From the NCBI GenBank assembly GCA_963801165.1, contig CAWDDT010000013.1, forward strand, positions 128,001-192,000: a DNA stretch of 64,000 bases. The letters run 5' to 3'. A program made the translations under genes and the position numbers. The DNA comes from an uncultured bacterium. Its GTDB lineage: Bacteria; Actinomycetota; Acidimicrobiia; Spongiisociales; UBA5794. The notes beneath the pieces are model-generated. The model was given only the letters and a program-made list of their open reading frames with translations, ran no database searches and had not been told where the DNA came from. Within the stretch, counting starts at the first letter, position 1. The number at the start of each line of letters is the position of its first letter. This document shows positions 27,902 through 61,247 of this stretch, in pieces.

Positions 27902-29749
27902 TCAGCTCTCGAGTGCCCGGCGCAAAAACGCCGCCATCTGCTCCCGGGTCACGTTGTCGTTGGGACAGAACATGTCGTTGGTCGGCGGATTACAACCTCT
28001 GGTTACCCCGGCAGTGCCCAACTTGTCGATGTTGTCCTCGAACACCGAACCGTCATCATCACTGAACAGATCACCGCCACCATTGTCGGTATAGCCAAGC
28101 GCCCGCACCAAGAACGCCGCCATCTGACCCCTGGTCACATAGTCGTTGGGACAGAACATGTCGTTGGTCGGCGGATCACAGCCTCTGGTTACCCCGGCAG
28201 TGCCCAACTTGTCGATGTTGTCCTCGAACACCGAACCGTCATCATCACTGAACAGATCACCGCCACCATTGTCGGTATAGCCAAGCGCCCGCACCAAGAA
28301 CGCCGCCATCTGACCCCTGGTCACATAGTCCTTGGGGCAGAACTCGTCGTTGGCGGGCGGGTTGCAGCCGAGCGTGATGGCCGCTGCAGCCAGCCAGCAG
28401 ATATCGGCTTCGAAGACGTTTGAAGAGTCGACGTCGGTAAACCCGTGTGTACATCCACCGGGCGGCGTGGTCGTCCCCTCCATGTCCACTTCGTAGACGT
28501 CGGCGTTTCCGGTGTCGTTCGAGTCGAATTCCTCGAAAGTCTGGAACGCAACGAACCGACCATCTCCCGAGATCGCCGGCTCGTTCAGGTAGCTGCCGCT
28601 GGTTGACGTACCCGGTGAACCGTCGCCGAACACCGACACCACCACGCCGGAGTCGGTCTGACGGTCGTAGACGACGACGTCGGCAAAGCCGTTAGCGTCA
28701 CCATAGATGTCCTGACCGGCAGTGAAGGTCACGTACCGGCCGTCGTCGGAGATGACCGGGAGAGGATCCTGCGAGACGGTGCCACCGCCTCCGGGGATCC
28801 GCTCGACCGTGCCGGTGGCGGCACTGTAGACGAACACATCATTGGTGTCGGCGGGATCGCCGGCGACGTAGTTGGTGTCGGGCGAGCCGAACGTCACAAA
28901 CCGACCGTCCCCTGATATGGCGAGATCCTCAGGATGGTTGCTCTGCGGACGCGCCCCGCCAATTCGCGGGTTGGCTATCTCGTAGGTGTCGCTCATCCGG
29001 TCGAAGAGAATGACGTCCTTGTACTGGCCGAACTCGCCGGTGGTGAACGCAACATACCGGCCATCGTTGGAGATGTCGGTGGAGCCGTAGGTCGAGCCCG
29101 TCGCGACAAACGCCGATCCGTCGGTGATCCTCTCAGAAGTGCCAGCGACCCGGTCGTAGACGTGCACGCCCCAGTCGTTGGCGGCCCCTGCCGCGTCGTA
29201 GCCGGAGCCGACGAACGCGACGTACATCCCGTCACCCGAGATCGCGGCATCGATTGCGCTGCCTTCGCTCGGAAGCCCGTCGTCTCGGAGCACCCGCTCG
29301 GTTGTTCCGGCGGTCCGGTCCCGGATGAAGATGTCGGGGTGCGCGTTGGTGTCACCCGCCACCAGGTTGTCCGCGGTCGAGGAGAACGCCACATACCGCC
29401 CGTCATCGGAGATGTCCAGCGTCGCGCCGCTGTCGTCGTTGCCTTTGACACCGCTCGAAGAGACGCTGACCAGCTCGATGTCACCGGTCATCACATCCTT
29501 GACGAACACGTCGTTGTCCCCTGTGTCCCCGGGAACGAGAGTGTCCTCTGATGAGCGAAACGCCACGTATCGCCCATCGTCGGACACCGCAACAGGCCCG
29601 ATGCCCCCATGACCCGTCCCATCGGCCGAGACGCTCACCCAGATGATGCTCTGGTCGGCCTCGGCCGCGGGTGCTGCCATCACTACGGCGGGTGCCGCGA
29701 CGGTTGCCACCAGCACGATGTGTACGAGGTATCCAACAACACGTTTCAT
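27902..29749 (-). CDS. Secreted TolB/PD40-type beta-propeller protein with three C-terminal SLH domains
   Basis: Signal peptide; repeated (I/V)SxDGR(Y/F)VAF blades; three xTxGCxPPxNDxFCPxDxVTRxQMAAFLxRAL modules. Confidence 0.88.
   Translation of the reverse strand: MKRVVGYLVHIVLVATVAAPAVVMAAPAAEADQSIIWVSVSADGTGHGGIGPVAVSDDGRYVAFRSSEDTLVPGDTGDNDVFVKDVMTGDIELVSVSSSGVKGNDDSGATLDISDDGRYVAFSSTADNLVAGDTNAHPDIFIRDRTAGTTERVLRDDGLPSEGSAIDAAISGDGMYVAFVGSGYDAAGAANDWGVHVYDRVAGTSERITDGSAFVATGSTYGSTDISNDGRYVAFTTGEFGQYKDVILFDRMSDTYEIANPRIGGARPQSNHPEDLAISGDGRFVTFGSPDTNYVAGDPADTNDVFVYSAATGTVERIPGGGGTVSQDPLPVISDDGRYVTFTAGQDIYGDANGFADVVVYDRQTDSGVVVSVFGDGSPGTSTSGSYLNEPAISGDGRFVAFQTFEEFDSNDTGNADVYEVDMEGTTTPPGGCTHGFTDVDSSNVFEADICWLAAAAITLGCNPPANDEFCPKDYVTRGQMAAFLVRALGYTDNGGGDLFSDDDGSVFEDNIDKLGTAGVTRGCDPPTNDMFCPNDYVTRGQMAAFLVRALGYTDNGGGDLFSDDDGSVFEDNIDKLGTAGVTRGCNPPTNDMFCPNDNVTREQMAAFLRRALES
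27959..28330. repeat. Near-identical 186-bp tandem duplication of one SLH module
   Basis: 27959-28144 and 28145-28330 differ at only about two positions. Confidence 0.9.
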
Positions 29750-32889: not shown

Positions 32890-32963
32890 TCGGGCTGGCC
32901 AGATTTGAACTGGCGACCCCCTGCTCCCAAAGCAGGTGCGCTACCAAACTGCGCTACAGCCCG
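32890..32963 (-). tRNA. tRNA-Pro(TGG)
   Basis: CGGGCTGTAGCGCAGTTTGGTAGCGCACCTGCTTTGGGAGCAGG...GTTCAAATCTGGCCAGCCCGA. Confidence 0.95.
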
Positions 32964-33025
32964 TGGTAGCGCCATTGTTGCAGGTCTCCGTAGGTCTGTC
33001 GTACCGGCTTGATACGTTGTGCAGC

Positions 33026-33730
33026 ATGAGACCTCGAATACCCAACCGCTTGCAGCAGCGGGCATCCGGATGGAACCACCTGTCCAATCGACAGCGTTCC
33101 GATCTAGGCAAAGAACTACGCCGCCTCGGCTTGATGCAAAGCGAAATCCGAGAGATCATTCCGGTGGCGAAATCCACCCTGTCCTACTGGTGCCGCGACG
33201 TTCAATTGACTCAGAAACAGGTCGACAAGATCAGGCAACGCCGTTATTCGACTGCGGGCGGGCGTCGCGACACTCAGGCCAAGAGGCGAGAAGAGATCCG
33301 AGTCCTTCGAACCGAGGCCCAACAGCAAGCTACTGAGTGGTCCCGAGATCCGCTGTTTGCGGCTGGAGTCGCTCTCTACTGGGCGGAGGGATCCAAGACC
33401 CGCAATCACTTTTCGATCGCTAACACCGATCCGGCATTGCTACGCGTGTTCATTGGGTGGGTTCGCCAGTATCTCGATACCTCTGCAGATTTCCGGCTTT
33501 GCCTCCACCTCCACGAGGGCAACTGCGAAGAGGCCGCCAAGACGTATTGGAGAGCGGAGCTGGGCCTCCCAACAGCACGGTTCACCAAGACATACGTCAA
33601 ACCGCGCGGCACAGGACACAGGAAGAATCGCATACCGGCGGGTGTGTGTCGAGTTCTGGTATGCCGGGGAGGAGACCACTGGCAACGAACAATGCAATGG
33701 ATTGACAACATGAGTGAGTGCATGGTCTGA
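33026..33730 (+). CDS. tRNA-associated HTH + LAGLIDADG-like hypothetical protein
   Basis: HTH (LRRLG..QSEI...VAKSTLSYW), then GVALYWAEGSK...ANTDP..LRVF...LHLH...YW...LGLP...FTK; lies between tRNA-Pro and tRNA-Lys. Confidence 0.7.
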   Translation: MRPRIPNRLQQRASGWNHLSNRQRSDLGKELRRLGLMQSEIREIIPVAKSTLSYWCRDVQLTQKQVDKIRQRRYSTAGGRRDTQAKRREEIRVLRTEAQQQATEWSRDPLFAAGVALYWAEGSKTRNHFSIANTDPALLRVFIGWVRQYLDTSADFRLCLHLHEGNCEEAAKTYWRAELGLPTARFTKTYVKPRGTGHRKNRIPAGVCRVLVCRGGDHWQRTMQWIDNMSECMV

Positions 33731-33870: not shown

Positions 33871-33954
33871 GCGGGCGTGGCGGAAATGGAAGACGCGCCA
33901 GGTTTAGGTCCTGGTGGGCGAAAGCCCGTGGGGGTTCGAGTCCCTTCGCCCGCA
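33871..33954 (+). tRNA. tRNA-Leu(TAG), integration target (attL)
   Basis: GCGGGCGTGGCGGAAATGGAAGACGCGCCAGGTTTAGGTCCTGGTGGGCGAAAGCCCGTGGGGGTTCGAGTCCCTTCGCCCGCA; long variable arm. Confidence 0.95.
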
Positions 33955-34029
33955 CTTGAGCCAGATACCCGCCCATCAGGGGATTCTGCCTCGCGGGCGG
34001 GTCCGCCGCCGGTCGACGAAGACAATCGT

Positions 34030-35150: not shown

Positions 35151-35253
35151 GCCACCGACCAACGAGCGCCAGCGTGAGTGCCGATGCAGAGCAGCATTTG
35201 AACTGCGCGATATCGCTCGGGAATTGATGATCTGCGATATCCATGCCATAGGC

Positions 35254-36573
35254 ATGACCGATGGGCGAGATTTTCGTGTGCCCATTGCGGAGATTCTCGG
35301 CCAGAATGGAGTCGTGGAATCCCGACCGCCCCTCGTAGGTGCACCCGCGCCGGAGCAGCAAGCAACCCGTTCCCTCGTCTTCTTGGCCGTGGTGGGCATT
35401 GCTGCCGGACTCTTTGGGTATCTTCTTGGAGTGACTGCCAACAGCGGTCAGGAGCCGGACCCGCCGAACGGGTTTCTTGCTCCTGTGGTATCTGGCGCCA
35501 CGACCGATACAAAGCAGGAGAATGACCGGACAGCGTCATCGTCGACAAGAGTGCCGGCGCTGGGTGCGACTAATGGTGCCACCTCTATGCCGCCGGTGCC
35601 AGGCCTTGTATCCGGTCCTGCCCTGCCGCAGGATCTACGTAGCTCGAGGTTCCGTCTCTTTCGGGGGGTGTGGCCGGAGCTCACGCTCGAGGAATGGACA
35701 ACCGAAGGTATCACGGCATCCGTACAGCTGCCGTGGCTTGCGAGTGGGCTGTCTGCCGACCAATCCGACGAACTGTTCGCATTCACCGCGCCGTCAGCCA
35801 CCGGGCAGACTCTCTATGTAGGCAGAAACAACATGTATGTAGCGGTATCAGCCGAACTTGCGGGAGGATGGTCATGGCACGGTTCTGAACCTGGGAAAGC
35901 AGCCTGGATCGAGGCGAGTGATGACGGGCGAGTAATGGTGTTCGGCCGACTTCAAGCAGAGATCTTGGGTGATCGTGGAGAGTATCTCGATGTAGCGGTA
36001 AATGCGCGGCACATCGGCGGAGCGCAACCAGATGAGTCGATCGTGGGACTTACGAGGTTTGGGATCGTGCTCCGCTCGTTCGACGAATCGGGACGGGCCA
36101 AGCTCGTCGCCCTTGACGGTGAAGTAGTGGCAGAAGCTGAGGGTATATTGCCGCTCGCCATCTCCGCCGACGGCTATGGATTGGCGGTTGTTCGATCGGA
36201 GGACCAGATTCAGTACGTCATCACCGACGAGGAGTTGAACCCTGTGACCAATCTCGGCCGCTATGACACGACAGCCGATTGGGTCGAATGGTCGCCGAGT
36301 GGCGAATACGTCGCATTCACACACACCGCTTTCCAAGATCGGGCATCGGACAGCGAGGTCCACCTTGAGATTTGGACCAGAAACGGACAGCCCGTGTTGG
36401 ACGTCCCGATACGTGCCGCAGTGTGGGATGGCGCTTGGACCGCTGATGAGTCGCGAGTAGTCATGGTGGCGAGCGATGCCGGTCCATGGCTTATCGCCAA
36501 CCCATCGACCGGCCAAATCCAAGCCCAGACCGTTGCGGCGGTGGCGGTGGCCGAGATAGACGCCAGCGGGTGA
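35254..36573 (+). CDS. Membrane-anchored extracytoplasmic protein, probable beta-propeller
   Basis: One TM helix (LVFLAVVGIAAGLFGYLLGV), Pro/Thr/Ser linker, TolB-like blades (ISADG, WSPSGEYVAF, WTADESRV); start uncertain (35224-35254). Confidence 0.7.
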   Translation: MTDGRDFRVPIAEILGQNGVVESRPPLVGAPAPEQQATRSLVFLAVVGIAAGLFGYLLGVTANSGQEPDPPNGFLAPVVSGATTDTKQENDRTASSSTRVPALGATNGATSMPPVPGLVSGPALPQDLRSSRFRLFRGVWPELTLEEWTTEGITASVQLPWLASGLSADQSDELFAFTAPSATGQTLYVGRNNMYVAVSAELAGGWSWHGSEPGKAAWIEASDDGRVMVFGRLQAEILGDRGEYLDVAVNARHIGGAQPDESIVGLTRFGIVLRSFDESGRAKLVALDGEVVAEAEGILPLAISADGYGLAVVRSEDQIQYVITDEELNPVTNLGRYDTTADWVEWSPSGEYVAFTHTAFQDRASDSEVHLEIWTRNGQPVLDVPIRAAVWDGAWTADESRVVMVASDAGPWLIANPSTGQIQAQTVAAVAVAEIDASG

Positions 36574-36778
36574 CCGAGGACACACTGGATTAGGTGTAGC
36601 GACCGCCAGGGATGCGTTTCTTGGGGCGAACGATCTTGATTGTCCGTTCCTATTCGTATCACCGCAAGATCCACGGTGTAGGCGAACTGATCCGCCGATC
36701 GACAAGGGTGATGCCGAGCATGCTGGGAAGGCAGTTCTATCGCCCGTATGACTTCCAATCACCGGGATCCCTATGGGG

Positions 36779-37405
36779 CTAGTCCAGGAGCCCTTGCTGT
36801 GCTGCCGCCATGAGCGCTTCGGTTTTGTTGGACGCGTCTAGCTTCCGGTACGTCGTAGCCAAAAGACGCTGCATGTTCCGTTCGCTATAGCCGATTGTGT
36901 CGGCCAACCTGCCAATCGTCACCCCGGAGGCGAGGATACGAAGCCAGTCAATCTCCTGGTCCGTCACTTGCATCGCGCCTTGACCCCTCGTGTCGGTTGG
37001 CGTCCAATCGCGAAAGACAACATGAGGCGCAATGGAGAGTCCCGCTCCGACGGCCTCTACGGCAACTACTAGCCAGTCGACAGACATCGCCACTGGAAGA
37101 ACGACCCACGCGCCGTATCGAAAGAGGGGTTCCGATAGGGCGGGCGAGGCAACCAGCGCGATGGTTGGGATCTGGGGAGTGTTCTCGCGAATTCGCAAGA
37201 ACAAGTCACAATCCTGTCGAGAGGCGCAGCCTGCTACCAGCAACGATGCGGACTCGCCCGCCACTGCCCACGCAACCGGATGGCTAACTTGCTGCACGTT
37301 CATACCGGCGGCTACGAGCACTGACTCGGCGCCAGCGGCTGTGAGTGGTGCAAGGCTTTTGGTTGCGATCCCGATCCGCATGTGTGCCCCCCTGTCGAAA
37401 CCCAC
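36779..37405 (-). CDS. LuxR/NarL-type regulator with a degenerate receiver-like domain
   Basis: C-terminal HTH TDQEIDWLRILASGVTIGRLADTIGYSERNMQRLL...YRKL..NKTEAL..A.QQGLL; divergent from the cargo operon. Confidence 0.85.
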   Translation of the reverse strand: MGFDRGAHMRIGIATKSLAPLTAAGAESVLVAAGMNVQQVSHPVAWAVAGESASLLVAGCASRQDCDLFLRIRENTPQIPTIALVASPALSEPLFRYGAWVVLPVAMSVDWLVVAVEAVGAGLSIAPHVVFRDWTPTDTRGQGAMQVTDQEIDWLRILASGVTIGRLADTIGYSERNMQRLLATTYRKLDASNKTEALMAAAQQGLLD

Positions 37406-37780
37406 ACGCCCCGCATTATCAGCCTACCCGATCACCAGACTTCTCGGCTCGGTATGCGCGAGAGCTTCCGGCGTCGCTTTCCCAATGACGGCGGACGCGA
37501 GAGGTGGCTTCTGCATATCGACCCATTGACGAGGGAGTCAGGCGCGAGGCCAGAGGCGTGGACCGCATTAGGCGGGGGGTTTGTGCCTGCATTGCGACGA
37601 CAAATGGCTGGCCGCTTCGGGCCAACCTTTGTCGTTGACGCGAGCTGGTGTCGTATCGAGAGGGATAGGGCAGGAGGTTTGTGAACTGATGCTGAGACCG
37701 GGCATAGACGACAGCGCTGGTAGGTTCGAGGCCGGGATCTTGCAGAGTCTCCTCGTGGTCGCCGCGGGTACGGGGGGAGT

Positions 37781-38368
37781 GTGATGTCTGCGAGGCATCT
37801 TGATCGCCGGGAAGTCCTCAGAATGATGGGGGTCTTTGTAGGAGGGGAAGTCGTCCTTACGAATCTTGGGGCCAGTCCTGCACGTGCCAGATCGGAGAAT
37901 CGGTACCGTAGCGACGCCATCGTTGTGGGATCGGTCATGGCTGTCGAAGCGGATTCGAATCAGATTGCGATCCGATCTGCTGTCCGATCTGAGGGATTCG
38001 TGGATATCGTCTGCTCGTCCAGGACGGTGTTCCTGCGTGACAGGCCTGCTGCAATCTCTGACTTCCTGACCGGAGACAAGATTGCGGTATTCGGAAGCCG
38101 CCAAGGCCAGTCACTCTTTGCAGCGACGGCTGTCCAGCCCGCCTATGAGGCGATGTTTGTTGATGTTGAATGGCCGCTCCCGGAGCGTGATATCACTATC
38201 CGAACTGAGCGGGGCGATCTCCTCATTCCCAACGGTGTCCTCAAGGTTGGTGAGACTGACCCAGCTCTCGTAGGTGATTTGACCCGAGTTCAGGCAACAG
38301 TTCGTCACGAGCCAGCGACGAACCGCTACGTGGCCGCCCTGATAGGCAACGGAGGCCACCACTCATGA
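37781..38368 (+). CDS. Tat-exported hypothetical protein, OB-fold/DUF5666-like
   Basis: DRREVL twin-arginine motif, ARA cleavage site; G.V.AV....I.I....V.....T.F......ISDF..GDKIAVFG...AATAV pattern; GGGGGAG RBS. Confidence 0.65.
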   Translation: MMSARHLDRREVLRMMGVFVGGEVVLTNLGASPARARSENRYRSDAIVVGSVMAVEADSNQIAIRSAVRSEGFVDIVCSSRTVFLRDRPAAISDFLTGDKIAVFGSRQGQSLFAATAVQPAYEAMFVDVEWPLPERDITIRTERGDLLIPNGVLKVGETDPALVGDLTRVQATVRHEPATNRYVAALIGNGGHHS

Positions 38369-38934
38369 GCGTTCCGTCGGTTCTTGGCTGGATTGTCATT
38401 GTGACTTTGTCATGGGCCGGTGCAGCGAAGCTCCTTAACCCAGCCGCGACACTTGGTGGTATCCGGTCTACGCTTCGGGCTGTACCGATACCTCGCTGGT
38501 CGGTCTGGTTCTTGGTCGCAGCGGAACTCGGTATCAGCGCCGCCTTGGCGTTCGGATTGCTTAGCGGCAGTTTCGTCCAACCGCCAGCGCTAGGAGCTGG
38601 GATCCTTCTCGCATTGTTCACGGTGATAAACGCCGTGGACATGATCCAGGGCGGTGAAAGTTCGTGTGCGTGCTTCGGCGCCACCGACATCTATCCGATA
38701 AGATTCAAGTCCTTCGCCTTGGCCAGATCTGCGTTCCTCAGCTCGCTTGCATTTGTCCTAGCCGTCGCCCCACCGGGCCAAACCAGTGCCGTCGAAGAGA
38801 CGAAGGCCGCCATCCTCGCAGTGAGCATCGTCGCGATGGCAGCCGTGATTCTAAGGGCTGTCCAATCGGTACGCCTGTGGCCCGCGCACACAGTCAAAGT
38901 CAAAGAGGTAGTCGAAGAGGTTCTGGCGGTCTAG
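38365..38934 (+). CDS. MauE/DoxX-family membrane protein
   Basis: AGAAKLLNP, LVAAELG, LLALFT, CACFG (CxCFG signature), ARS; ATGA overlap with the upstream gene. Confidence 0.85.
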   Translation: MSVPSVLGWIVIVTLSWAGAAKLLNPAATLGGIRSTLRAVPIPRWSVWFLVAAELGISAALAFGLLSGSFVQPPALGAGILLALFTVINAVDMIQGGESSCACFGATDIYPIRFKSFALARSAFLSSLAFVLAVAPPGQTSAVEETKAAILAVSIVAMAAVILRAVQSVRLWPAHTVKVKEVVEEVLAV

Positions 38935-38982
38935 GAGCGATGAACATGCACCCAACAGGTACGAAACGACCGGGAGAGATCT

Positions 38983-39603
38983 ATGCCTGAAATGGATACC
39001 GCCTTGGTTGCAGCTCTCTTGGCATGGCAGGTCGTTGTAGCCGTTCTGATAGCAGTCCTTTTCCGGCAGGTCGCGCTGCTGTCAATCGCTATGAGTCAAC
39101 AAGACCCACCAGCGCGCAACTCAAATCTGGCAGTTGGGGTCCCAATCCCCCAAGAACTTGACTCAGACATGGTTGACCCCGCCGAAACAACGTACGTGTT
39201 CTGGCTATCCGTTGGCTGCGACGCGTGCGTCAGAGTTGCAGAAGAACTGGGCACCGCGATTTCGACGGGTGCATGGACCGAATCAACAGTTGCGTTGATC
39301 ACGGGGCCAGCCACCGCGGCTACGTCGCTATCGGACACAGCAGCCCTTCAGAATCGCACCATCGTCGACCCAGATGCCAGCTCAATAATCGAGACTCTCG
39401 GCCTGACAACGTCACCGTTCGTGATCAAGACCGCGAATGGCGTCGTCAGGGGGTGGAGCACCGTTACAAGCATTCCGGACTTGGAGAAGCTACGAACCGA
39501 TCCCGCCAGCGGCGATACTGACAAACGGGAGGAAGAGCAGATCGCATCGCCGAAATCTGAAGAGGCAGGGTCTACTCCATCAACATCGGGGTCGCACCGA
39601 TGA
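38983..39603 (+). CDS. MauD-like membrane-anchored thioredoxin-fold protein
   Basis: N-terminal TM ending AVLFRQVALL, LAVG.PIP, FWLSVGCDAC (CxxC), TSPF (cis-Pro position), GVVRG. Confidence 0.82.
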   Translation: MPEMDTALVAALLAWQVVVAVLIAVLFRQVALLSIAMSQQDPPARNSNLAVGVPIPQELDSDMVDPAETTYVFWLSVGCDACVRVAEELGTAISTGAWTESTVALITGPATAATSLSDTAALQNRTIVDPDASSIIETLGLTTSPFVIKTANGVVRGWSTVTSIPDLEKLRTDPASGDTDKREEEQIASPKSEEAGSTPSTSGSHR

Positions 39604-39983
39604 TCAGCTCGCAGCGAACGGACGAGGACCTGCGGATATCGAACTCCGAGTCTGTTCCCAGCGGACCCACGTTCTTGACGCGGAGCGCATTTCTTGCTCG
39701 TGCCGCTGCCGTAGCGTTTGGCACTGCGGCCTTCCTGTTCGGCCTGCCAATGCCCTCCGCTCTGGCGTCGCATAACAGGTGTTGTCATGAATCCACTCCC
39801 CTCTGTTCTTGCTGCAACGGAGACACCTGCTGCGCTTCCGGCTGCACCATCCGGTGCGGCGATTGCCCTGGTGGTGGGTGCTCGTGGACGTGTTGCTACG
39901 GGACTGCGCTTTGGAACTGTAAGGACTGGAACGATCCAGCAGTAGGGAACTGCGTATGCATCGAAGGGTTGAGTCAATGCTAG
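39600..39983 (+). CDS. Secreted Cys-rich peptide (17 Cys in a ~71-aa mature region), in the MauA position
   Basis: ATGA-coupled to the mauD-like gene; Tat-like LTRSAFLA, hydrophobic stretch, ALA|S site; mature region CCHESTPLCSCCNGDTCCASGCTIRCGDCPGGGCSWTCCYGTALWNCKDWNDPAVGNCVCIEGLSQC. Confidence 0.85.
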   Translation: MISSQRTDEDLRISNSESVPSGPTFLTRSAFLARAAAVAFGTAAFLFGLPMPSALASHNRCCHESTPLCSCCNGDTCCASGCTIRCGDCPGGGCSWTCCYGTALWNCKDWNDPAVGNCVCIEGLSQC

Positions 39984-40038
39984 GTGGCCACTGGAAACGA
40001 TCCATCGGCAGCTCGACTTATGACGACATTGGAGCACC

Positions 40039-40740
40039 ATGAACACTGGACTGGTCGCCGTCCTATCGGCCGCAGCAATCACTGCCGCTCTCGTACAGCA
40101 AACACTTCCGTGAGGCGTCAACCTGGCACAAGACACCAGGTTTCCCGAAGGTCTTCGGGGCAGAGCCAAACCAAGACTCATTGCCAGCAGCTGGCACCTC
40201 ATCTTGCTGGGCGCTACCAGCGCACTGGCAGGCGCCGCGATAGGGCTTGGTCTCGGGGCTCTCAGCTCTGTGCTCAATCTGCCTCAACAGGGTTCCGTCG
40301 TTGCAGCTGCGACCCTCGGGATGGTGCTTGGCGGTCGAGAAGTGGCTGGTGCCAGTCTGAATCTGTGGCAGATCGACCGCGAAACACCGCGAGTTTGGGC
40401 AGAACGATCTCCGTTCTCCTGGGCAGTGAGAACGGGAACCCTCATCGGAACAGGGTTCGTCACCCGTATCGGCTACACCGTGTTCTACGTGGCTCCGATC
40501 GGTATCCTTCTTGCAGCAGACTCAATCAGCGGGGCAATCATCCTGGGAGCATACGGTGCCACAAGAGGCTTCTCGTCCCTGGTGCTCAACCGCCGCCTGG
40601 CCCTGGATGCCGGATTCGATACGCTAATGATGATTCTTTTCGGGTTGAGGACTAGAGCTCGGGTCCTCTCTGGAGTGGCGACGACACTCGTTTCCCTCAC
40701 AGGGCTGGCGTGGGCGCTCGTCTCAGCCGCCCAAGCCTAG
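40039..40740 (+). CDS. MauF/DsbD-like membrane protein with in-frame TGA (candidate selenoprotein, 233 aa)
   Basis: GGAG RBS then ATG 40039, in frame with the 40204-40740 ORF: MNTGLVAVLSAAAITAALVQQTLP-TGA-GVNL... Downstream motifs WQIDRETPRVW, GTLIGTGFVTRI and YGATRG match MauF-like proteins. Confidence 0.75.
40114..40160 (+). promoter_or_regulatory. Candidate bacterial SECIS element
   Basis: Directly after TGA 40111-40113: hairpin AACCTGG-cacaagaca-CCAGGTT (40120-40142), then CCCGA-AGGTCT-TCGGG (40144-40159). Confidence 0.5.
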
Positions 40741-41118
40741 AAACCAGGGGATCCCTTTGGTGTTCGTTGCGCACCCAAGCCCGACGTTGACGGCGAACCG
40801 GTCTTGTTTGGGCCTGTGAGCGTCGTCGTAGACGCGACCGGATCCTCGGTAGCAGGTTCGATTGTTCACAATCTGGGCGACAACGTGGGGACCGTGTACC
40901 ACAATAATCCGGAGCGAGCGAGGTCTCGGAGCGCTCCATTCCGTTTGGGAGGAGGGCCGAGCATCGCCAAACATAGTTGTGCGCTCAAGGAGTCGGATCG
41001 GTCAACGGTGCCCTAGATCACCTACCGCCCCGCACGTTATCGCACCAGCGTCCGGCAACCGGCAGTCGGCGCTGGCAAGACAGTGTCTGGATCGGGCTAG
41101 GCGTGGAGTGCCCGTATG

Positions 41119-43866
41119 TCAGCGGCCGATGTCGGGGATGTGCCGGGTCCAGGCGTGCTCGGTGATGTGGCGTTGCCTGGCGGTTTCGATGCTCTGGTTA
41201 ATCTGCTGCCAAATGCGGTTGTCGTCGGGGCTGAGATCCGGCTTGTCGTCGTGGTCGGTTGGGTGCGTTGCTTCTTGCTGATCGCCTCCGAGCTGGCTGT
41301 GTCCGAGCGAGGGGTTCAACACCCTGTCGGCTTCGAGGCGCGTTCGTTGGGTGATGGCGGGCTCGTCGATCCAATCCCGGATGATGGCTTGGGTGAGGAT
41401 ATCGGCTGCCGTTTCGCCTTCGTTGGTGACGACGTAGGCGTGGTTGGAGCTTCGGCCGCGGGTCAGCGGCGTGTAGAGACCGCGGCCGTCGACGGGGCCG
41501 TCAACGAGGAGGAGACCGGTGTCGACGGTGCGGCCTTGGGTGGCATGGCTGGTCTGCGCATAGCCAAGCTCGAGATCCTCAGCGGCGTAGTCGGCGGGAA
41601 GACGCACCCTGCCCGAGCGTCCGGTGACGGTGACGGCGCCGTCGGTGTGGATAGCTTCGATCGTCCAGTGGTCCCGGTTCTTGACCATGGCGCCGCGGTC
41701 GGTGCGCAGGGTGCGCTGGTTACGGCGGGTAACCACCTCGTCGCCGACGAGCAGCCGCTCACGGGCAACGTCGAGGGCCGGCCCGTCCGGGTCGAGCTCA
41801 CCGGCGTCGATGCGTCTCTGTTGGGCATGCTGGTTGAGCCGGTTGACGGTGTGGTTGGTGTTGGCCATCAACGCCACCGACTCGCCCCGCCGCCGCGCCT
41901 GATACCAGGCGTCGACGACGGCGGCCTCCATCTCGTTGGGGGTGCCGTCGTGGAGGCGACCGTGACGCTGATACTCGCCGAGCACGCCGATGTCGCCTTG
42001 GCGGAGACGCCGGGTGGCGTCGGCTTCCCAGTCGTGGGTGAAGCGGTGGATGTGGTCAAGTTCGATGGCACCACAGGTGTCGATGAGGTGGGCGAACATG
42101 CCGCCCCGACCAACAGCGGAGAACTGGCGGGGATCACCCACCATCACCACCCGCCATCCTTTCACGTCGGCGAGATCGACGAATGCCGCGAGTTTCGGGG
42201 TGGAGACGGTGCCGGCTTCATCAACGATCACCGTCGAACCCCGCGGCAAATCGTATCCCGGTTGTGGTGGCCGGTCGGGCCGGGAGTGTTCGTAGAGGAG
42301 CTTGTCCAGCGTGTCGGCCATCATGGTGGTTTCTGCGGCGAGCACCTCGGCGGCCGCTGCGGTGGCTGCCACCCCGAACACCGTCTGGCCGCGGTGCTGT
42401 AGGTAGGCGACGGCGGGGGTGAGGGCGACGGTCTTGCCGGATCCGGCGGGTCCGACGATCAGCTCCAACGGTACGCTACCGGCTACTGCCCGACACGCTT
42501 CGGACTGGCCCACACTCAAACCGGCCGTATCGAGACCCCGACGTGGGGTGTTGATGATGTCGGCGAAACGGCGCAGGCGTTGAGCCCATTCCACGATCCG
42601 TTCCTCCTCCTCAAGAATCGCTCCGGTGGTGAGGGCCCGGTCGACGGCGGCTTCGGCGATGGGGCGCCCATCACGGCGCAACACGGCACCAGACGGCACG
42701 GGTGGGGACAGGTCGACACAGCGGTCCGCCGCAACACGGTTGGCGAGGTCCTGCAGGAAGCTGCACAGACGATCCGGTTCGACGGTGACATTGGTGGGGA
42801 CCTGGGCGGCGAGCTCACGGACCAGCTCGGCGGGACGCCACGTCGACTGCCGCTCCCCCAAAGCCTCCAACGCCCCCTCCACCATCCCTGTCATTGTCGC
42901 CTGGTCGATGCCCGCCGCCCGACGGACCCGACCCACCGCGCCCACGGCGATGTCGTGTGGCTCGAAACCGCGAGCGGCCGCCCGCATCCGCCACCCGGCA
43001 TGCAACTCGCCCGCAGCGTGATCGTGAGTCTTAGCGGGGCGACTATCGAGCACGGCTTCGCGTTCCAAGCGCCACCGCTCCCGTCCAGTCGGTTCCCGCC
43101 CGAGGTCGCTGCGGAACCGAACCAGTTTTCCGCCAACCCGCTGCTCGACGTCATGGCTGCGTTGGGAGAACTCGGCCAGTATCTCCGCATCGACACCGAC
43201 CATCTCGGCAATCCCATTGTCAGGTTGGTGCCATCGGACACCGAGGCGGCGGGTCAGCTCGGCCCGTAGCCCGGCGTGATACAACCCCGACAGGGTCCGC
43301 TGATCCATCTTGATGGTGCGGGCATCGAGCGCCAACCACCGTCCGTCCGGAGCCTTGACTCTGTTGGCGATCACCGCATGGGTATGCAGCTGCGGGTCGA
43401 GGCGACGGCTGGTGTGCTGACGAAACACCCCCACCACGATCCCTTCGGCGTCAACACACATCACATGACCCCGCCGCCGCATCCTCGTGTGCGCTTGGGA
43501 CTCGACCCAACCCAACACCGCGTCGACCGCCTGGCCATGCGCCTCGGTCACCTGTGCCCTGAGGTGTTCGTCGCCCATGGCGAACAGCACCGACACCGAC
43601 TTCGGCGCCGAAAAGGTCGCATCGAACCCCCGCACCGAGTCATCCCCGAAGCGGCGACCCAACCGCTCCCCCGTCGTCGGATGCAATCCGGCCATCACCG
43701 CCAGAAACGCCTCATCCTCGACCACACCATCCAGACCCAACTCGGCGGCGCCGTATCCGAACCAGCGACCCGGCGGCTCACCACTGTCGAGGTAGTACGA
43801 CGGGAGCTGCTCGGTGTAATAGCGACCCGCCTCGGCACCTTTCAACGTCGTCACCCGCACCGTCAC
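41119..43866 (-). CDS. mobF: MobF (TrwC-type) relaxase-helicase
   Basis: N-terminal YY..YY, FDATFSAPKSVS, HTSRRLDPQLHTHAVI (HUH), EFSQRS; helicase motifs GPAGSGKT, VDEAG, VGDPRQ, GYAQTSHATQGRT. Confidence 0.95.
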   Translation of the reverse strand: MTVRVTTLKGAEAGRYYTEQLPSYYLDSGEPPGRWFGYGAAELGLDGVVEDEAFLAVMAGLHPTTGERLGRRFGDDSVRGFDATFSAPKSVSVLFAMGDEHLRAQVTEAHGQAVDAVLGWVESQAHTRMRRRGHVMCVDAEGIVVGVFRQHTSRRLDPQLHTHAVIANRVKAPDGRWLALDARTIKMDQRTLSGLYHAGLRAELTRRLGVRWHQPDNGIAEMVGVDAEILAEFSQRSHDVEQRVGGKLVRFRSDLGREPTGRERWRLEREAVLDSRPAKTHDHAAGELHAGWRMRAAARGFEPHDIAVGAVGRVRRAAGIDQATMTGMVEGALEALGERQSTWRPAELVRELAAQVPTNVTVEPDRLCSFLQDLANRVAADRCVDLSPPVPSGAVLRRDGRPIAEAAVDRALTTGAILEEEERIVEWAQRLRRFADIINTPRRGLDTAGLSVGQSEACRAVAGSVPLELIVGPAGSGKTVALTPAVAYLQHRGQTVFGVAATAAAAEVLAAETTMMADTLDKLLYEHSRPDRPPQPGYDLPRGSTVIVDEAGTVSTPKLAAFVDLADVKGWRVVMVGDPRQFSAVGRGGMFAHLIDTCGAIELDHIHRFTHDWEADATRRLRQGDIGVLGEYQRHGRLHDGTPNEMEAAVVDAWYQARRRGESVALMANTNHTVNRLNQHAQQRRIDAGELDPDGPALDVARERLLVGDEVVTRRNQRTLRTDRGAMVKNRDHWTIEAIHTDGAVTVTGRSGRVRLPADYAAEDLELGYAQTSHATQGRTVDTGLLLVDGPVDGRGLYTPLTRGRSSNHAYVVTNEGETAADILTQAIIRDWIDEPAITQRTRLEADRVLNPSLGHSQLGGDQQEATHPTDHDDKPDLSPDDNRIWQQINQSIETARQRHITEHAWTRHIPDIGR

Positions 43867-43962: not shown

Positions 43963-44367
43963 TCAGTCGGCGGTGGCTACTCGGTCGAAGAGATCGAGTT
44001 GGTCGGTAGTAGCGCGTTGGCGAGTTCGCGACCGTCGGCTGGTGGTTGTGACGGTTGCAGGATCGGGGTTGGCGGGAAGTTCTGGACCCATCGCCGCTCG
44101 GGCCTGCGGCGTCCCCGTGGACTCCGGGTCGTCGTTGCTGCTGGAGACGTCCACGCTCGACAGGTCGGCACCGATCATCTCCTCGAGGGCTGAGCGTGGC
44201 ACCCGCAACACGTGACCGAGATCGACTACCGGCAGCCCGGAGTGACCGCCGGTCTCCCGCCACTCCCGCGCCATGGCATACGCCTTGGTGCGCCCGATCC
44301 GCAACAGCTCTCCGGCCTCTTCGACCGTCAGCAGCAACGGAATCGGTACCCCATTCACAATATACAA
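43963..44367 (-). CDS. Excisionase-like HTH protein (start uncertain)
   Basis: LLTVEEAGELLRIGRTKAYAMA...LPVVDLGHVLRVPRSAL; divergent from the XRE gene. Confidence 0.85.
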   Translation of the reverse strand: MYIVNGVPIPLLLTVEEAGELLRIGRTKAYAMAREWRETGGHSGLPVVDLGHVLRVPRSALEEMIGADLSSVDVSSSNDDPESTGTPQARAAMGPELPANPDPATVTTTSRRSRTRQRATTDQLDLFDRVATAD

Positions 44368-44453
44368 CCTTTGCAGGCACTACTCATAGACAGTATGATA
44401 GCAGCGTGCTCACACATTTCACACACAAGCGTCATGTTGTGTACGATACGGAG

Positions 44454-45197
44454 ATGCCCGCACATCCAGATCCACCACCCAGCGGCGAGGTCGACCTCAA
44501 CCAGATCGTCGCCTACAACCTGCGCGAAGCCCGCCAACTACGCGGATGGACCCAAGAAGGGCTCGCCGACCGGCTCGAGCCCTACCTCGGCCAACGCCTC
44601 ACCCAGGCCGGCATCTCCTCGATGGAAAGGGCCTGGGACGGAGACCGCCGACGAGAGTTCGACGCACACGAACTGCTGATCTTCGCCATGGTGTTCGACC
44701 TCCCCATGCTCTACTTCCTACTCCCCCCACCCGGCGACCGCCGCCGCCTTCAAGCCACCAGCGCCCAAGTCAACCATCTGTACGCCTGGCTCCTCGGCCG
44801 GCACGGACAGGTTGAACCGGTGTACGAACGGCTCCGCCAGCTCGGCATCACCGACCCCACCGCAGCCGAAGAGACCGTCGAGAAGATCACCGGGATCCCC
44901 GGCGCAGCAAAGCAGTGGAGCTACCGGGAACGGCGCAAGGAGCTGCTCCTCGCCATCCTCAACGAGCACGCCGACGACTTCGACAAGAACATCGAAGAAC
45001 TGGGACGCATCGTCGACCACCTCCGCCAGGTCGGCATCCGCGGCTTCGTCGCCGAACACACCCACGACGAAGACTTCACCTACCGAGAAGGCCACCCACC
45101 ACGGACGGTACGTCAGGACCCTCTCGTTAGCCGTGAGAACGAGGCAGCACGAGACGACTCAAGCGATGAGAGGGCGACACCGGGAGGTAGGCCGTGA
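44454..45197 (+). CDS. XRE-family transcriptional regulator
   Basis: Start at MPAHPD; VAYNLREARQLRGWTQEGLADRL...QAGISSMER; overlaps the integrase start (GTGA). Confidence 0.88.
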   Translation: MPAHPDPPPSGEVDLNQIVAYNLREARQLRGWTQEGLADRLEPYLGQRLTQAGISSMERAWDGDRRREFDAHELLIFAMVFDLPMLYFLLPPPGDRRRLQATSAQVNHLYAWLLGRHGQVEPVYERLRQLGITDPTAAEETVEKITGIPGAAKQWSYRERRKELLLAILNEHADDFDKNIEELGRIVDHLRQVGIRGFVAEHTHDEDFTYREGHPPRTVRQDPLVSRENEAARDDSSDERATPGGRP

Positions 45198-46393
45198 GGC
45201 GTCGAGGGCACATCGCCCGGAAGGGCCGGAAGTTCTACGCAGTCGTCGACCTTGGGCGCGACGAGCTGAGCCGCAGGCGCCGTCGGCGATGGTCACGCGG
45301 GTTCGAGACGGAGAGCGAGGCCGACGCCGAGCTCGTCCGGCTCCTCCACTCCCTCGACCAAGGCGACTCGATCGAGCGAACCAAGCTCACCGTCGAGCGG
45401 TACCTCTTGGAGCGGTGGCTCCCCATTGCCGAAGGAAACCTGGCGGTTACCACGCAGAAGGAGTACCGGGTGACCGTGACGGCGTACGTCGTCCCTCACA
45501 TCGGGCATCTTCGGCTCAATCGAGTCGATGCCACAACGATCGACCGACTGTACGTGAAACTGCGCAGGGAGGGTGGCCGCGATGGTCGCCCGCTGTCCGC
45601 CAAGACGGTCCGGAACATCCATGGTGTGCTGTCGGCGGCGTTCGGGTTCGCCGTCAAGAAAGGCCTGCTCACCCGCAACCCGGTGGCGCTCGCCGAAACA
45701 CCGGACGCGGGGCGACCCGACACGGCTCCACCGTGGACCGCCCAAGAGCTTCGGTCCTTCATCAACCACGTCGACGGTGACCGCCTGGAAGCGCTGTGGT
45801 GGATGATCCCGTTCACCGGGATGCGCCGCTCCGAGGCGCTTGGCCTCGCCTGGGACGACGTGGATCTCGACCGCGGGACGATCGCCGTGACCCATACGGT
45901 CGTGGACGCCGACGGTGGACCAGTAAGGCGCCGCGACACCAAGACGCGGCAAAGCCGACGCCCGATCTCGCTCGACGTCGACACGCTGGGAAAGGTCCGC
46001 GAGCATCGCCGCCGTCAGCTCGAGGAGCGGATGTTCGTAGGCGCCGGCTACAACGACATCGGTCTCGTGTTCTGCCGCCCCGACGGGTCGACGCTGCGTC
46101 CCGATTGGGTATCACGACGCTTCGCAAGGATCAGAGACGAGGCCGGTCTACGGCGAATCACCCTTCGCGATCTCCGTCACGTATGGGCGACACTCGCCCT
46201 GGAGTCAGGCATCCACCCCAAAGTCGTCCAGGAACGGCTCGGCCACTCCTCGATCGCCATGACAATGGACCAGTACTCACACGTCATCGAAGGTCTCGAC
46301 CGCCAAGCAGCGGCCACGGTGGCCGACCTGGTGCTCCGACCTTCTACCCAGACTTCTACCCAACCCCCCGCCATCGGACGCGATCAGGCATAA
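45194..46393 (+). CDS. int: Tyrosine recombinase/integrase
   Basis: Arm-binding N-terminus, TGMRRSEALGL, RDLRH (R replaces the usual H of HxLRH), QERLGHS, catalytic Y in DQYSH; next to attR. Confidence 0.95.
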   Translation: MRRRGHIARKGRKFYAVVDLGRDELSRRRRRRWSRGFETESEADAELVRLLHSLDQGDSIERTKLTVERYLLERWLPIAEGNLAVTTQKEYRVTVTAYVVPHIGHLRLNRVDATTIDRLYVKLRREGGRDGRPLSAKTVRNIHGVLSAAFGFAVKKGLLTRNPVALAETPDAGRPDTAPPWTAQELRSFINHVDGDRLEALWWMIPFTGMRRSEALGLAWDDVDLDRGTIAVTHTVVDADGGPVRRRDTKTRQSRRPISLDVDTLGKVREHRRRQLEERMFVGAGYNDIGLVFCRPDGSTLRPDWVSRRFARIRDEAGLRRITLRDLRHVWATLALESGIHPKVVQERLGHSSIAMTMDQYSHVIEGLDRQAAATVADLVLRPSTQTSTQPPAIGRDQA

Positions 46394-46476: not shown

Positions 46477-46531
46477 AGGTTTAGGTCCTGGTGAGCAATG
46501 CTCGTGGGGGTTCGAGTCCCTTCGCCCGCAC
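46477..46531 (+). repeat. attR: displaced 3' half of tRNA-Leu
   Basis: AGGTTTAGGTCCTGGTGAGCAATGCTCGTGGGGGTTCGAGTCCCTTCGCCCGCAC matches 33900-33955 except in the variable arm. Confidence 0.93.
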
Positions 46532-61055: not shown

Positions 61056-61247
61056 GGTTCTAGTGTCGGCAGAATCGTCCAGGGATTGAGCGCGACGCCA
61101 CCCGTCTGCTGGGTTGCATTGCCAGCGCCCTCTGGCGACTCCAGGTGCGCCGATCGGGCGATCGCTGCATCGCCGAGCCCGGCCACAGCTGCCCGTGCCA
61201 ATGCAATGGTTAGTCTGACGGGACCCGGTGCGAGGTGAGGAGACAAC

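Follow-up and report, generated by a model that had tools for sequence, protein, structure and literature searches.

A putative oxidative-folding cassette for a cysteine-rich peptide on an integrative, mobilizable element

The operon and its mobile element

We analyzed a 64,000-nt stretch of DNA (the window) that carries an operon of five co-directional ORFs on the + strand (37781-40740). As described in an earlier note on this DNA, two of the junctions are ATGA overlaps, that of ORF1/ORF2 at 38365-38368 and that of ORF3/ORF4 at 39600-39603. The operon has 58-60% GC vs 62-67% for most of the window.

The operon lies in a tRNA-Leu-associated integrative and mobilizable element of ~12.6 kb that is bounded by repeats of the tRNA-Leu 3' end. 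ARAGORN placed tRNA-Leu(tag) at 33871..33955 (+), and its 3' part is the left copy of an att-like direct repeat (33900-33955, +); the right copy is at 46477..46531 (+, 94-95% identity). The element encodes a tyrosine integrase (45194..46393, +; Pfam Phage_integrase 80 bits plus an arm-binding domain), an HTH_17 (excisionase-type) DNA-binding protein (43963..44367, -; Pfam 28.1 bits) and a 915-aa MobF/TrwC relaxase-helicase (41119..43866, -; Pfam TrwC 275 bits, NCBIfam MobF 237.7 bits). Hence, the repeats and these three proteins bear out the integrative element claimed previously. Along with the MauE-family ORF2, the three account for all four Pfam matches at E ≤ 1e-3 among the 67 element ORFs of at least 75 aa. 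The element also carries a 449-aa cargo ORF (35224..36573, +) with an N-terminal hydrophobic segment and no assigned family; its sole matches were sub-threshold, DPPIV_N (a beta-propeller family) at E 0.13 and ISOA1-3_C at E 0.0048 (17.5 bits, cut-off 27.3), and a MauB profile gave no match to it.

Divergent from the operon is a gene for a 208-aa regulator (36779..37405, -) with a weak LuxR/GerE-type C-terminal HTH. The divergent position agrees with the earlier description, and the LuxR label is weak since Pfam GerE scores 18.7 bits, below its cut-off of 23.5; an NCBIfam MadR-family HTH region matched at E 5e-5.

The first gene, ORF1 (37781..38368, +), encodes a family-less 195-aa protein with one Cys and a signal-like N-terminus bearing the twin-arginine motif DRREVLR. 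It matched nothing in Pfam at E ≤ 10 and nothing in NCBIfam. Its Atlas matches include Actinomycetota 'cell wall protein' clusters at 0.92 and DUF5666 at 0.82. Hence, of the proposal of a Tat-exported OB-fold-like protein, the twin-arginine motif stands and the DUF5666/OB assignment is only an Atlas lead.

ORF2, ORF3 and ORF4

ORF2 (38365..38934, +) encodes a MauE-family membrane protein by three comparisons: Pfam PF07291 matched with 49.0 bits (E 9.8e-13), a profile of five MauE proteins ranked it first of 3,285 sequences (E 2e-7), and hhalign to MauE gave E 2.8e-5. It has K22 in TM1, E54 in TM2 and C101-A-C103-F-G, and the two CACFG cysteines are all that it contains. Hence, the MauE likeness and CACFG site noted before are confirmed by the Pfam score and profile rank, and on sequence statistics ORF2 alone among the five ORFs is a secure family member. 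Passages of a preprint (10.64898/2026.03.05.709764) tie the K, E and CXC-F-G features of MauE to DsbB-replacing activity, and report MauA in merely 10.2% of MauE-bearing species and a fused thioredoxin-family domain in 8.2% of MauE entries.

ORF3 (38983..39603, +; 206 aa) consists of a membrane anchor, predicted as a helix at residues 3-38 (pLDDT 73-95), and a downstream CxxC domain whose single CDAC pair, C79/C82, holds its only two cysteines. It is collinear with five MauD proteins in the anchor, the CxxC, a Pro preceding a strand and (D/H)LE(K/S)L, and its anchor motif RQVALL resembles the RQVGLL/RQIGLL of MauD (hhalign E 0.015 over that stretch). Family-level matches were not found: no thioredoxin-like or MauD match arose in Pfam, NCBIfam or PDB sequences, TIGR02661 (MauD) gave nothing vs 384 bits on a genuine MauD, the five-MauD profile ranked ORF3 eleventh (E 6.2), and BLASTP against MauD gave E 9.4. 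The structure model has a low pLDDT of 47, and all its Foldseek E-values are at least 0.23; among the matches listed, nearly all neighbors have the thioredoxin fold. We infer that the fold is probably that of thioredoxin. Hence, the MauD-like label holds for the architecture of anchor and CDAC and not at the level of family.

ORF4 (39600..39983, +) encodes a 127-aa precursor with a 56-aa leader ending in SALA (cleavage site predicted by eye) and a 71-aa mature part. The leader is Cys-free and all 17 Cys are within the last 71 residues, which upholds the 17-Cys peptide described previously. Because 17 is an odd number, disulfides alone cannot account for every Cys. The ATGA overlap of its start with the ORF3 stop points to translational coupling. 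At 0.96, its Atlas neighbors are hypothetical proteins of 128-146 aa from Actinomycetota/Chloroflexota.

We also compared ORF4 with MauA. The leader is MauA-like in length and aligns with the MauA leader around a (T/S)R motif, and PF02975 is carried by 6 of the 30 Atlas matches (best 0.94, 168 shared features). ORF4 itself had no PF02975 match at E ≤ 10 and no Pfam or PDB match, was not listed by the MauA profile built from five mau clusters, and scored z 0.9 against MauA by Smith-Waterman, with reversed MauA scoring at least as high as forward in 5/5; the MADH light chain was absent among its 14 Foldseek matches. Hence, none of these tests (Pfam, MauA profile, Smith-Waterman and Foldseek) marks ORF4 as a MauA homolog.

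ORF5 and its in-frame TGA

ORF5 was listed by the ORF program as 178 aa (40204-40740) with a TTG start inside a hydrophobic helix. Read from ATG 40039, which has GGAG 4 nt upstream, it spans 233 codons (40039..40740, +) with no Cys codon and a single stop, an in-frame TGA at 40111..40113 (+). Relative to MauF, this TGA falls at the invariant Cys of the motif WSPCGYSS: it is opposite the Cys, present in 5/5 MauF, in the mafft --add alignment and is paired with it in 4/5 pairwise local alignments.

Smith-Waterman scores of the read-through against the five MauF proteins were 80, 79, 116, 60 and 72, which block shuffles exceeded in 2, 0, 0, 25 and 9 of 200 cases, respectively. In the read-through comparison, MauF ranked first of 198 TM-rich ORFs, and BLASTP gave E 0.009 with Indioceanicola MauF and E 1.1 with that of P. 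denitrificans. By bias-corrected methods the relationship is marginal (HMM rank 13, E 4.2; hhalign E 0.35). From TTG 40204, the MauF likeness is undetectable (z 2.0) and appears solely upon reading through the TGA. Hence, a MauF-like gene is plausible from these alignments; the resemblance noted earlier applies to the read-through from ATG 40039 and extends neither to the TTG-start form nor to a family-level match.

A 7-bp hairpin with the apical loop GGUC (40143..40160, +; -8.2 kcal/mol) sits 36 nt past the TGA and agrees with published bacterial SECIS consensus constraints, drawn from the Fig. 2 legend of PMC13188914. In its stem length, 4-nt loop starting with GG, spacing and energy it is like the hairpins of bacterial selenoproteins as portrayed there. 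Such selenoproteins have arisen from redox-active Cys, according to passages of PMC1794560 and PMC13188914, and share with ORF5 an in-frame UGA at a conserved Cys position of Cys-containing homologs. Unlike known selenoproteins, the ORF5 codon is compared with distant MauF alone, and its Sec status is that of a candidate. A word search of the main text of PMC13188914, a 2026 review, returned no MauF, MauE, methylamine, CcdA or transmembrane. For the TGA, selenocysteine and nonsense mutation are both possible. Hence, of the selenium dependence suggested before, the in-frame TGA at a conserved MauF Cys position is real, and a nonsense mutation is another possible cause.

Putative function and comparison with known systems

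We think it probable that the operon, known here from one locus, works as a self-contained cassette for the oxidative folding of one secreted, disulfide-rich mini-protein. ORF4 would be exported with its long cleavable leader; ORF3, as a membrane-anchored thioredoxin-like CxxC protein, would oxidize the 17 ORF4 cysteines outside the cytoplasm; and ORF2, MauE-type and DsbB-like, would re-oxidize ORF3, with electrons passing from the CXC site to quinone. ORF5, as a distant MauF relative, may be a further membrane accessory whose single redox-type position, TGA-encoded, would be selenocysteine or a recent knockout. ORF1 may be a Tat-exported accessory or partner, and the divergent LuxR-type protein may regulate the operon. 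We infer this electron path, any biological role of the peptide and, from adjacency, ORF4 as the dedicated substrate. The defensin-like, signaling and metal-binding roles suggested in the earlier note would be candidates for the peptide. A Mau accessory module that folds and exports a disulfide-rich peptide on a mobilizable element, as put forward in the earlier note, is still the best reading; its 'MauD-like', 'MauF-like' and 'OB-fold' labels are weaker than stated, as they draw on architecture and marginal statistics, not family-level matches.

ORF2 and ORF3 could instead be a general-purpose DsbB/DsbA-like pair for exported host proteins, with ORF4 as one substrate or an unrelated neighbor, which we consider unlikely. 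Passages of the preprint (10.64898/2026.03.05.709764) argue that MauE is a generalist and show it replacing DsbB in E. coli, and ORF3 is tied to ORF4 by adjacency and the ATGA overlap alone. However, the tight operon puts a 24%-Cys secreted protein straight after the CxxC protein, the element (4/67 ORFs with a Pfam match) has no other obvious exported disulfide-dependent machinery, and a like pairing was found in Streptomyces by decRiPPter (passages of PMC7794033).

We give a low probability to ORF4 being a disulfide-knotted antimicrobial or signaling peptide of a bacteriocin-like competition module, with ORF5 (or ORF1) for immunity or export. A small secreted Cys-rich product with a multi-pass membrane protein directly downstream, the LuxR-type divergent regulator and the mobile-element location would fit, but the mature peptide is net acidic (6 D/E vs 3 K/R), the element ORFs include no ABC exporter or leader peptidase, and ORF5 is nearer to a Mau accessory protein than to any immunity family. 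This role, with its putative inhibitory or signaling activity, would be compatible with the folding cassette and would add a biological role to it.

Lower still we place decaying cargo, in which a nonsense mutation has produced the ORF5 TGA and an old element carries what is left of a cassette that no longer functions. A single step separates the TGA from either Cys codon, the two att repeats do not match perfectly (94-95%), folding around the TGA has an ordinary energy (z -1.18), 8.3% of TGA triplets in the window have a SECIS-compliant hairpin by chance, and no Sec machinery was seen within the window. Should the TGA act as a genuine stop, the MauF-like gene would be disrupted and the cassette might be in decay. 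Against this, ORF1 to ORF4 are intact, as are the integrase and relaxase genes, the overlaps of start and stop signals have been kept, and the single stop in 233 codons falls exactly on the one conserved Cys position.

Profiles from five genuine mau clusters (Paracoccus denitrificans, P. methylovorus, P. versutus, Methylobacterium sp. DM1 and Indioceanicola profundi plasmids) found MauE alone among the 620 window ORFs, with no MauA, MauB, MauG, MauJ or amicyanin, in line with the absences noted before; the element holds no other mau genes or RiPP enzymes. We read the system as something other than an amine dehydrogenase. Least probable is a miniaturized or remnant quinoprotein in which ORF4 is a shrunken MauA-type subunit with Trp/Cys forming the cofactor, ORF1 or the 449-aa ORF is its partner and MauG-type chemistry is elsewhere or lost: the E-D-'A' gene order of real mau clusters, the aligning leader, the PF02975-bearing neighbors and three Trp in the mature part favor it, but ORF4 fails the MauA comparisons above, its mature part has 71 aa vs ~113 Pfam domain positions, and the mau partners are missing from the window.

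The operon shares with mauFBEDACJG a MauE protein directly followed by a membrane-anchored CxxC protein and then by a small exported protein that is rich in Cys and has a long leader; alignments to genuine mau clusters show the E-D-A-like order proposed earlier. In both systems there is also a divergent regulator upstream and a MauF-like multi-pass membrane protein. Unlike mauFBEDACJG, the operon lacks MauB, MauG, MauJ and amicyanin, its small protein (71 aa, 17 Cys) is outside PF02975, its CxxC protein is not recognized by the MauD equivalog model, and an extra Tat-signal ORF1 leads. The MauF-like gene follows the small protein, whereas it is first in the mau cluster, and has TGA in place of the conserved Cys. 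The operon is on a small integrative mobilizable element, and the host is probably of the Actinomycetota, whereas the compared mau hosts are Pseudomonadota.

With the DsbB-replacing MauE of the preprint passages, ORF2 shares the four-helix membrane protein, the CXC-F-G site, the conserved K and E, and, in ORF3, a putative thioredoxin-family partner. The MauE proteins tested were of Calditrichota and Thermodesulfobacteriota origin and worked via E. coli DsbA, whereas the putative partner here is divergent and dedicated, in a module operon-linked to one very Cys-rich product.

The concept of MauE with a Cys-rich peptide is not new; decRiPPter (PMC7794033, 2020) reported mauE (+mauD) beside precursors with at least 8 Cys in Streptomyces genomes without other mau genes; in the passages concerned, its authors read the pairing as peptide modification, not MADH maturation. 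Those families, one also with mauD, share with this operon a mauE homolog adjoining a Cys-rich predicted precursor; they are predictions in Streptomyces chromosomes, likened here by description and not by sequence. The same passages mention neither a MauF-like gene nor a TGA codon, a Tat ORF or a mobile element. Hence, the operon is a variant of an already predicted MauE/Cys-rich-precursor pairing.

The operon and its mobilizable element

We found five co-directional genes on the plus strand at 37781–40740, all from the ORF listing: ORF1 (37781–38368), ORF2 (38365–38934; MauE, also by Pfam), ORF3 (38983–39603; a CxxC protein), ORF4 (39600–39983; a Cys-rich precursor) and ORF5 (listed from TTG 40204 to 40740). 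ATGA overlaps join ORF1 to ORF2 and ORF3 to ORF4, and a gene for a 208-aa regulator (36779–37405) diverges from the operon; these coordinates bear out the gene arrangement described in the earlier note. The LuxR label that the note gave to the regulator fared less well, its HTH match being weak (18.7 bits for GerE, short of the cut-off; NCBIfam HTH E 5e-5). Searching the divergent promoter region between regulator and ORF1 for inverted repeats gave a single 8-nt pair and nothing else, a perfect repeat (ACGACAAA/TTTGTCGT, 23 nt apart, 37597–37635) that is a possible operator, though short enough to have arisen by chance.

The operon and its regulator lie wholly inside a 12.6-kb element bounded by direct repeats of the tRNA-Leu 3' end (left copy 33900–33955; right copy 46477–46531, 94–95% identical to the left). 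The element also holds a tyrosine integrase (45194–46393), an HTH_17 protein (43963–44367) and a MobF relaxase (41119–43866), and we found no mating-pair apparatus; tRNA-flanking repeats, integrase and relaxase together define an integrative mobilizable element, as the earlier note had proposed. Among the plasmid relatives listed for the relaxase, the best 15 are all from genera of actinobacteria (32–35% identity), which makes Actinomycetota the probable host phylum. GC content is 58–60% in the operon vs 62–67% across most of the window, and the DNA outside the element is ordinary chromosome (RNase E/G, MreBC, RodA, PBP2, ValRS, LeuRS, ClpXP and trigger factor). Among 67 element ORFs of at least 75 aa, four matched Pfam at E ≤ 1e-3: MauE, the relaxase, HTH_17 and the integrase.

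The sole other sizeable cargo gene of the element encodes a 449-aa protein (35224–36573, plus strand) with an N-terminal hydrophobic segment; its matches are all sub-threshold (ISOA1-3_C, E 0.0048; beta-propeller-type DPPIV_N, E 0.13), and it did not match the MauB profile. Two long overlapping plus-strand ORFs of 380 and 322 aa (44055–45780), placed between the genes for HTH_17 and the integrase, have no Pfam or NCBIfam match; one could serve the element in replication or transfer, or the pair could be artefacts of high-GC frames.

An 879-aa STAND-type regulator (29951–32590, plus strand; AAA_16/nSTAND6 N-terminus, GerE HTH C-terminus) immediately precedes the tRNA-Pro/Lys/Leu cluster into which the element has inserted. 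A putative 264-aa ORF of no family (32936–33730, plus strand) sits between tRNA-Pro and tRNA-Lys and overlaps the opposite-strand tRNA-Pro gene. Elsewhere in the window, a 615-aa protein (27902–29749, minus strand) carries PD40 beta-propeller repeats and a C-terminal SLH (S-layer homology) domain; SLH proteins suggest an envelope unusual for an actinobacterial lineage. A 1401-aa hybrid histidine kinase (57519–61724, minus strand; several PAS, HisKA, HATPase, receiver and Hpt domains) adjoins a branched-chain amino-acid ABC transporter operon and an arginine deiminase gene.

MauE, its candidate partner and the Cys-rich precursor

We compared the operon with five genuine mau clusters taken from plasmids (Paracoccus denitrificans, P. 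methylovorus, P. versutus, Methylobacterium sp. DM1 and Indioceanicola profundi). ORF2 matched the MauE family PF07291 at 49.0 bits (gathering cut-off 27, E 9.8e-13) and ranked first of 3,285 sequences (E 2e-7) with a profile built from the five genuine MauE. Its only two Cys form C101-A-C103-F-G, and K22 in TM1 and E54 in TM2 were assigned by position and by alignment to the genuine mau proteins. On sequence grounds, then, ORF2 is securely placed in MauE, a DsbB-like disulfide-forming membrane family, and the CACFG protein of the earlier note is confirmed by family model, profile rank and motif alike. A preprint on MauE and DsbB (10.64898/2026.03.05.709764) describes MauE proteins that substitute for DsbB in E. 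coli and ties CXC-F-G, the TM1 Lys and the TM2 Glu to MauE activity. By the same account, MauA is present in only 10.2% of MauE-bearing species, and a thioredoxin-family domain is fused to 8.2% of MauE entries.

Pfam found no MauB, MauA or MauG in the window, and profiles from the five clusters gave nothing credible for MauB, MauG, amicyanin, MauJ or MauA among its 620 six-frame ORFs. The earlier note had reported the operon to be free of MauG, amicyanin and MauB, and this absence extends to all 620 ORFs. The locus would thus not qualify as a methylamine (quinoprotein amine) dehydrogenase cluster, MauB, MauA and MauG being absent from the 64-kb window.

ORF3 matched none of the NCBIfam families at E ≤ 1, no redoxin or thioredoxin Pfam family at E ≤ 10 and nothing in a PDB sequence search below E 0.1, whereas genuine MauD scores 383.7 bits against TIGR02661 and also matches AhpC-TSA and Thioredoxin_2. 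Hence, ORF3 is not a MauD equivalog. What stands of its description as MauD-like is the architecture: a confidently modelled N-terminal membrane helix, the anchor motif RQVALL (RQVGLL/RQIGLL in the five MauD; hhalign E 0.015 over that stretch) and one CxxC, with downstream motifs collinear with MauD. The single-sequence AlphaFold2 model (pLDDT 47, domain below 50) is too weak for a firm fold call; its listed Foldseek neighbours are almost all thioredoxin-fold, none of them significant (best E 0.23, none at E ≤ 0.001). We infer, on good grounds, that ORF3 is a thioredoxin-like CxxC partner of MauE.

ORF4 encodes a 127-aa precursor with a leader of 56 residues, read by eye, that ends in ...SALA. 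The 71-residue mature part carries 3 Trp, a net negative charge and all 17 Cys, confirming the earlier count. Since 17 Cys cannot all pair in one chain, one of them must stay a free thiol, bond to another molecule, bind a metal or enter a cross-link. The gene holds the MauA position and the leader of its product can be aligned with the long leader of MauA, yet the sequence tests for a MADH light chain were negative: ORF4 had no Pfam match at E ≤ 10 (PF02975 included), was unlisted by a profile of five MauA, and scored no better against MauA (Smith-Waterman z 0.9; hhalign E 0.16) than against reversed MauA. A PDB sequence search gave nothing below E 0.1. The single-sequence AlphaFold2 model of mature ORF4 is all-beta at pLDDT 58.5, too weak for a firm fold call, and its 14 Foldseek matches (all E ≥ 4.1) include no MADH light chain, which a model of this confidence cannot exclude. 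Its nearest relatives in the Atlas are hypothetical proteins of 128–146 aa from Actinomycetota and Chloroflexota (0.96); PF02975 is on 6 of 30 neighbours (best 0.94, 168 shared features), scores weakened by a low recognition value. Hence the precursor has the place of MauA and a MauA-like leader, and none of these tests makes it a member of the family.

Two other identities for ORF4 were considered. An enzyme-modified RiPP, whether of radical-SAM, lanthipeptide or another type, is unlikely, as such an enzyme is missing from the element, where we found neither radical-SAM nor lanthipeptide enzymes and no gene for a peptidase or an ABC exporter. A metallothionein-like cytosolic metal binder is unlikely given the export leader and the aromatic residues.

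ORF1 has the twin-arginine motif expected of the Tat protein described earlier. The proposed DUF5666 (OB-fold-like) identity found no Pfam match at E ≤ 10 and nothing in a PDB sequence search below E 0.1, and the Atlas value of 0.82 for DUF5666 is a lead only. A predicted complex of mature ORF1 and mature ORF4 scored 0.02, a value obtained without controls that carries no weight either way.

The probable MauF-like gene and its in-frame TGA

The ORF5 frame is open upstream to ATG 40039 except for one TGA (40111–40113), and reading this TGA as sense gives a read-through ORF5 of 233 codons. GGAG lies 4 nt before ATG 40039; the listed TTG 40204 has no comparable site and falls inside a hydrophobic helix. 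Against MauF, ORF5 alone gave a Smith-Waterman z of 2.0 and the read-through frame 4.8. Scores of the read-through frame against the five MauF were 80, 79, 116, 60 and 72, reached by 2, 0, 0, 25 and 9 of 200 block-shuffles, respectively. P. denitrificans MauF came first in rank among 198 TM-rich ORFs (about 1.1 Mb of unrelated DNA), and BLASTP of the read-through frame gave E 0.009 vs Indioceanicola MauF and E 1.1 vs P. denitrificans MauF. Profile methods were marginal (rank 13, E 4.2 in a five-sequence MauF HMM; hhalign E 0.35). MauF itself is recognised by no Pfam or NCBIfam model, and for this reason the library misses of ORF5 carry no weight. The MauF likeness noted earlier is seen only with the read-through frame, and we regard this frame as probably homologous to MauF.

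In the multiple alignment the TGA falls after the first conserved helix of MauF and coincides with the WSPCGYSS Cys, a residue shared by all five MauF; four of the five pairwise alignments pair TGA and Cys, and the fifth does not reach the position. A UGA on a homologue's Cys is one mark of a bacterial selenoprotein, here with a marginal underlying homology to MauF. The read-through frame has zero Cys codons, and the invariant-Cys feature of MauF would be present in ORF5 only if the TGA encodes selenocysteine.

A Cys codon is one mutation away from TGA. Hence, a knockout at that very codon is possible too, and a nonsense mutation or a non-functional gene is a quite plausible reading of ORF5, with nearly an even chance of being right. 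GC by codon position around the TGA did not tell coding from non-coding. Selenium dependence, as suggested in the earlier note, draws modest support from the position of the TGA on the MauF Cys and from a hairpin 36 nt past it (7 bp, loop GGUC, −8.2 kcal/mol) that satisfies the four bSECIS consensus constraints set out in the Fig. 2 legend of the 2026 selenoproteome review (PMC13188914). By a simplified no-bulge test, 8.3% of all TGA triplets in the window (138 of 1658) are followed by a compliant hairpin. On the other side, none of selA, selB, selC (tRNA-Sec) and selD is within the 64-kb window, the local fold around the TGA is not unusual (z −1.18), and Rfam over 36500–41200 at E ≤ 10 returned three matches at chance level, none of them to a SECIS family. 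We consider selenocysteine at this codon doubtful; other outcomes, such as separate products, take up the remainder.

The same tentative standing attaches to the wider proposal that ORF5 is a selenoprotein of MauF type, its one conserved Cys exchanged for selenocysteine, which, with MauE and a divergent MauD-like thioredoxin, folds the 17-Cys peptide, the whole moving between actinobacteria on the integrative mobilizable element as a selenium-dependent cassette. The TGA at the conserved MauF Cys gives rise to a specific selenoprotein hypothesis that can be tested directly. If true, the wider proposal would also give MauF, whose role is so far undefined, a redox-active function. A word search of the main text of the selenoproteome review finds no MauF-type protein named (PMC13188914).

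Relatives, proposed pathway and known systems

Searching plasmids by tblastn returned nothing for ORF4 and ORF3 (both at E ≤ 0.01), ORF2 (E ≤ 0.001), ORF1 (E ≤ 1) or the read-through ORF5 (E ≤ 10); at E ≤ 10, ORF2 gave one irrelevant match (E 4). In a scan of genome contigs with ORF2, 392 stretches fitted the pattern and none was confirmed. A degenerate DNA pattern of the ORF4 Cys framework found one match in a trial on the window (none expected) and at least 120 loci in the genome contigs, all those listed being triplet-repeat or low-complexity readings rich in Cys/Trp; seven window proteins had no match in the 120 listed loci at E ≤ 1e-2. Spaced TGY codons with one TGG are fitted by such DNA (runs like CCW/PCC) in very many genomes. 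The pattern was thus poorly chosen and its outcome uninformative on whether ORF4 has relatives; for scans of whole collections, a Cys-framework pattern must include anchor residues other than Cys.

With the identity of MauE and the anatomy of the operon in hand, we infer a dedicated oxidative-folding relay as the most economical reading, together with the client relationship of ORF4 and any role of its peptide. ORF4 would be exported and ORF3 would introduce its disulfides; the MauE protein ORF2 would re-oxidise ORF3 and pass the electrons on to quinone. The MauF-like ORF5 and ORF1 would be accessories at an unspecified step.

That MauE is a general disulfide generator of the DsbB kind is a recent finding, and it is not known to have established natural partners or clients outside methylamine dehydrogenase. 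The operon offers a 3-kb transferable test case that unites one MauE, a candidate thioredoxin-like partner, a putative client exceptionally rich in Cys and a MauF-like protein. Should it function in the proposed way, the cassette would delineate a MauE pathway dedicated to one client, help to assign a function to MauF and serve as a portable means of producing disulfide-dense peptides in Gram-positive hosts of high GC.

Our literature search found no characterised example of mauE with a Cys-rich precursor, and no mention of a MauF-like partner, of a TGA at its Cys or of carriage on a mobile element. As described in the decRiPPter study (PMC7794033), three Streptomyces candidate families contain mauE, one of them also mauD; each has a predicted precursor with at least 8 Cys, the genomes otherwise lack mau genes, and the study reads the arrangement as modification of the peptide. 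Since this precedent, predicted only, exists, the locus is a further variant of an already predicted kind. Likened by published description, the Streptomyces families place mauE, with or without mauD, beside a Cys-rich precursor, as the operon does here (PMC7794033).
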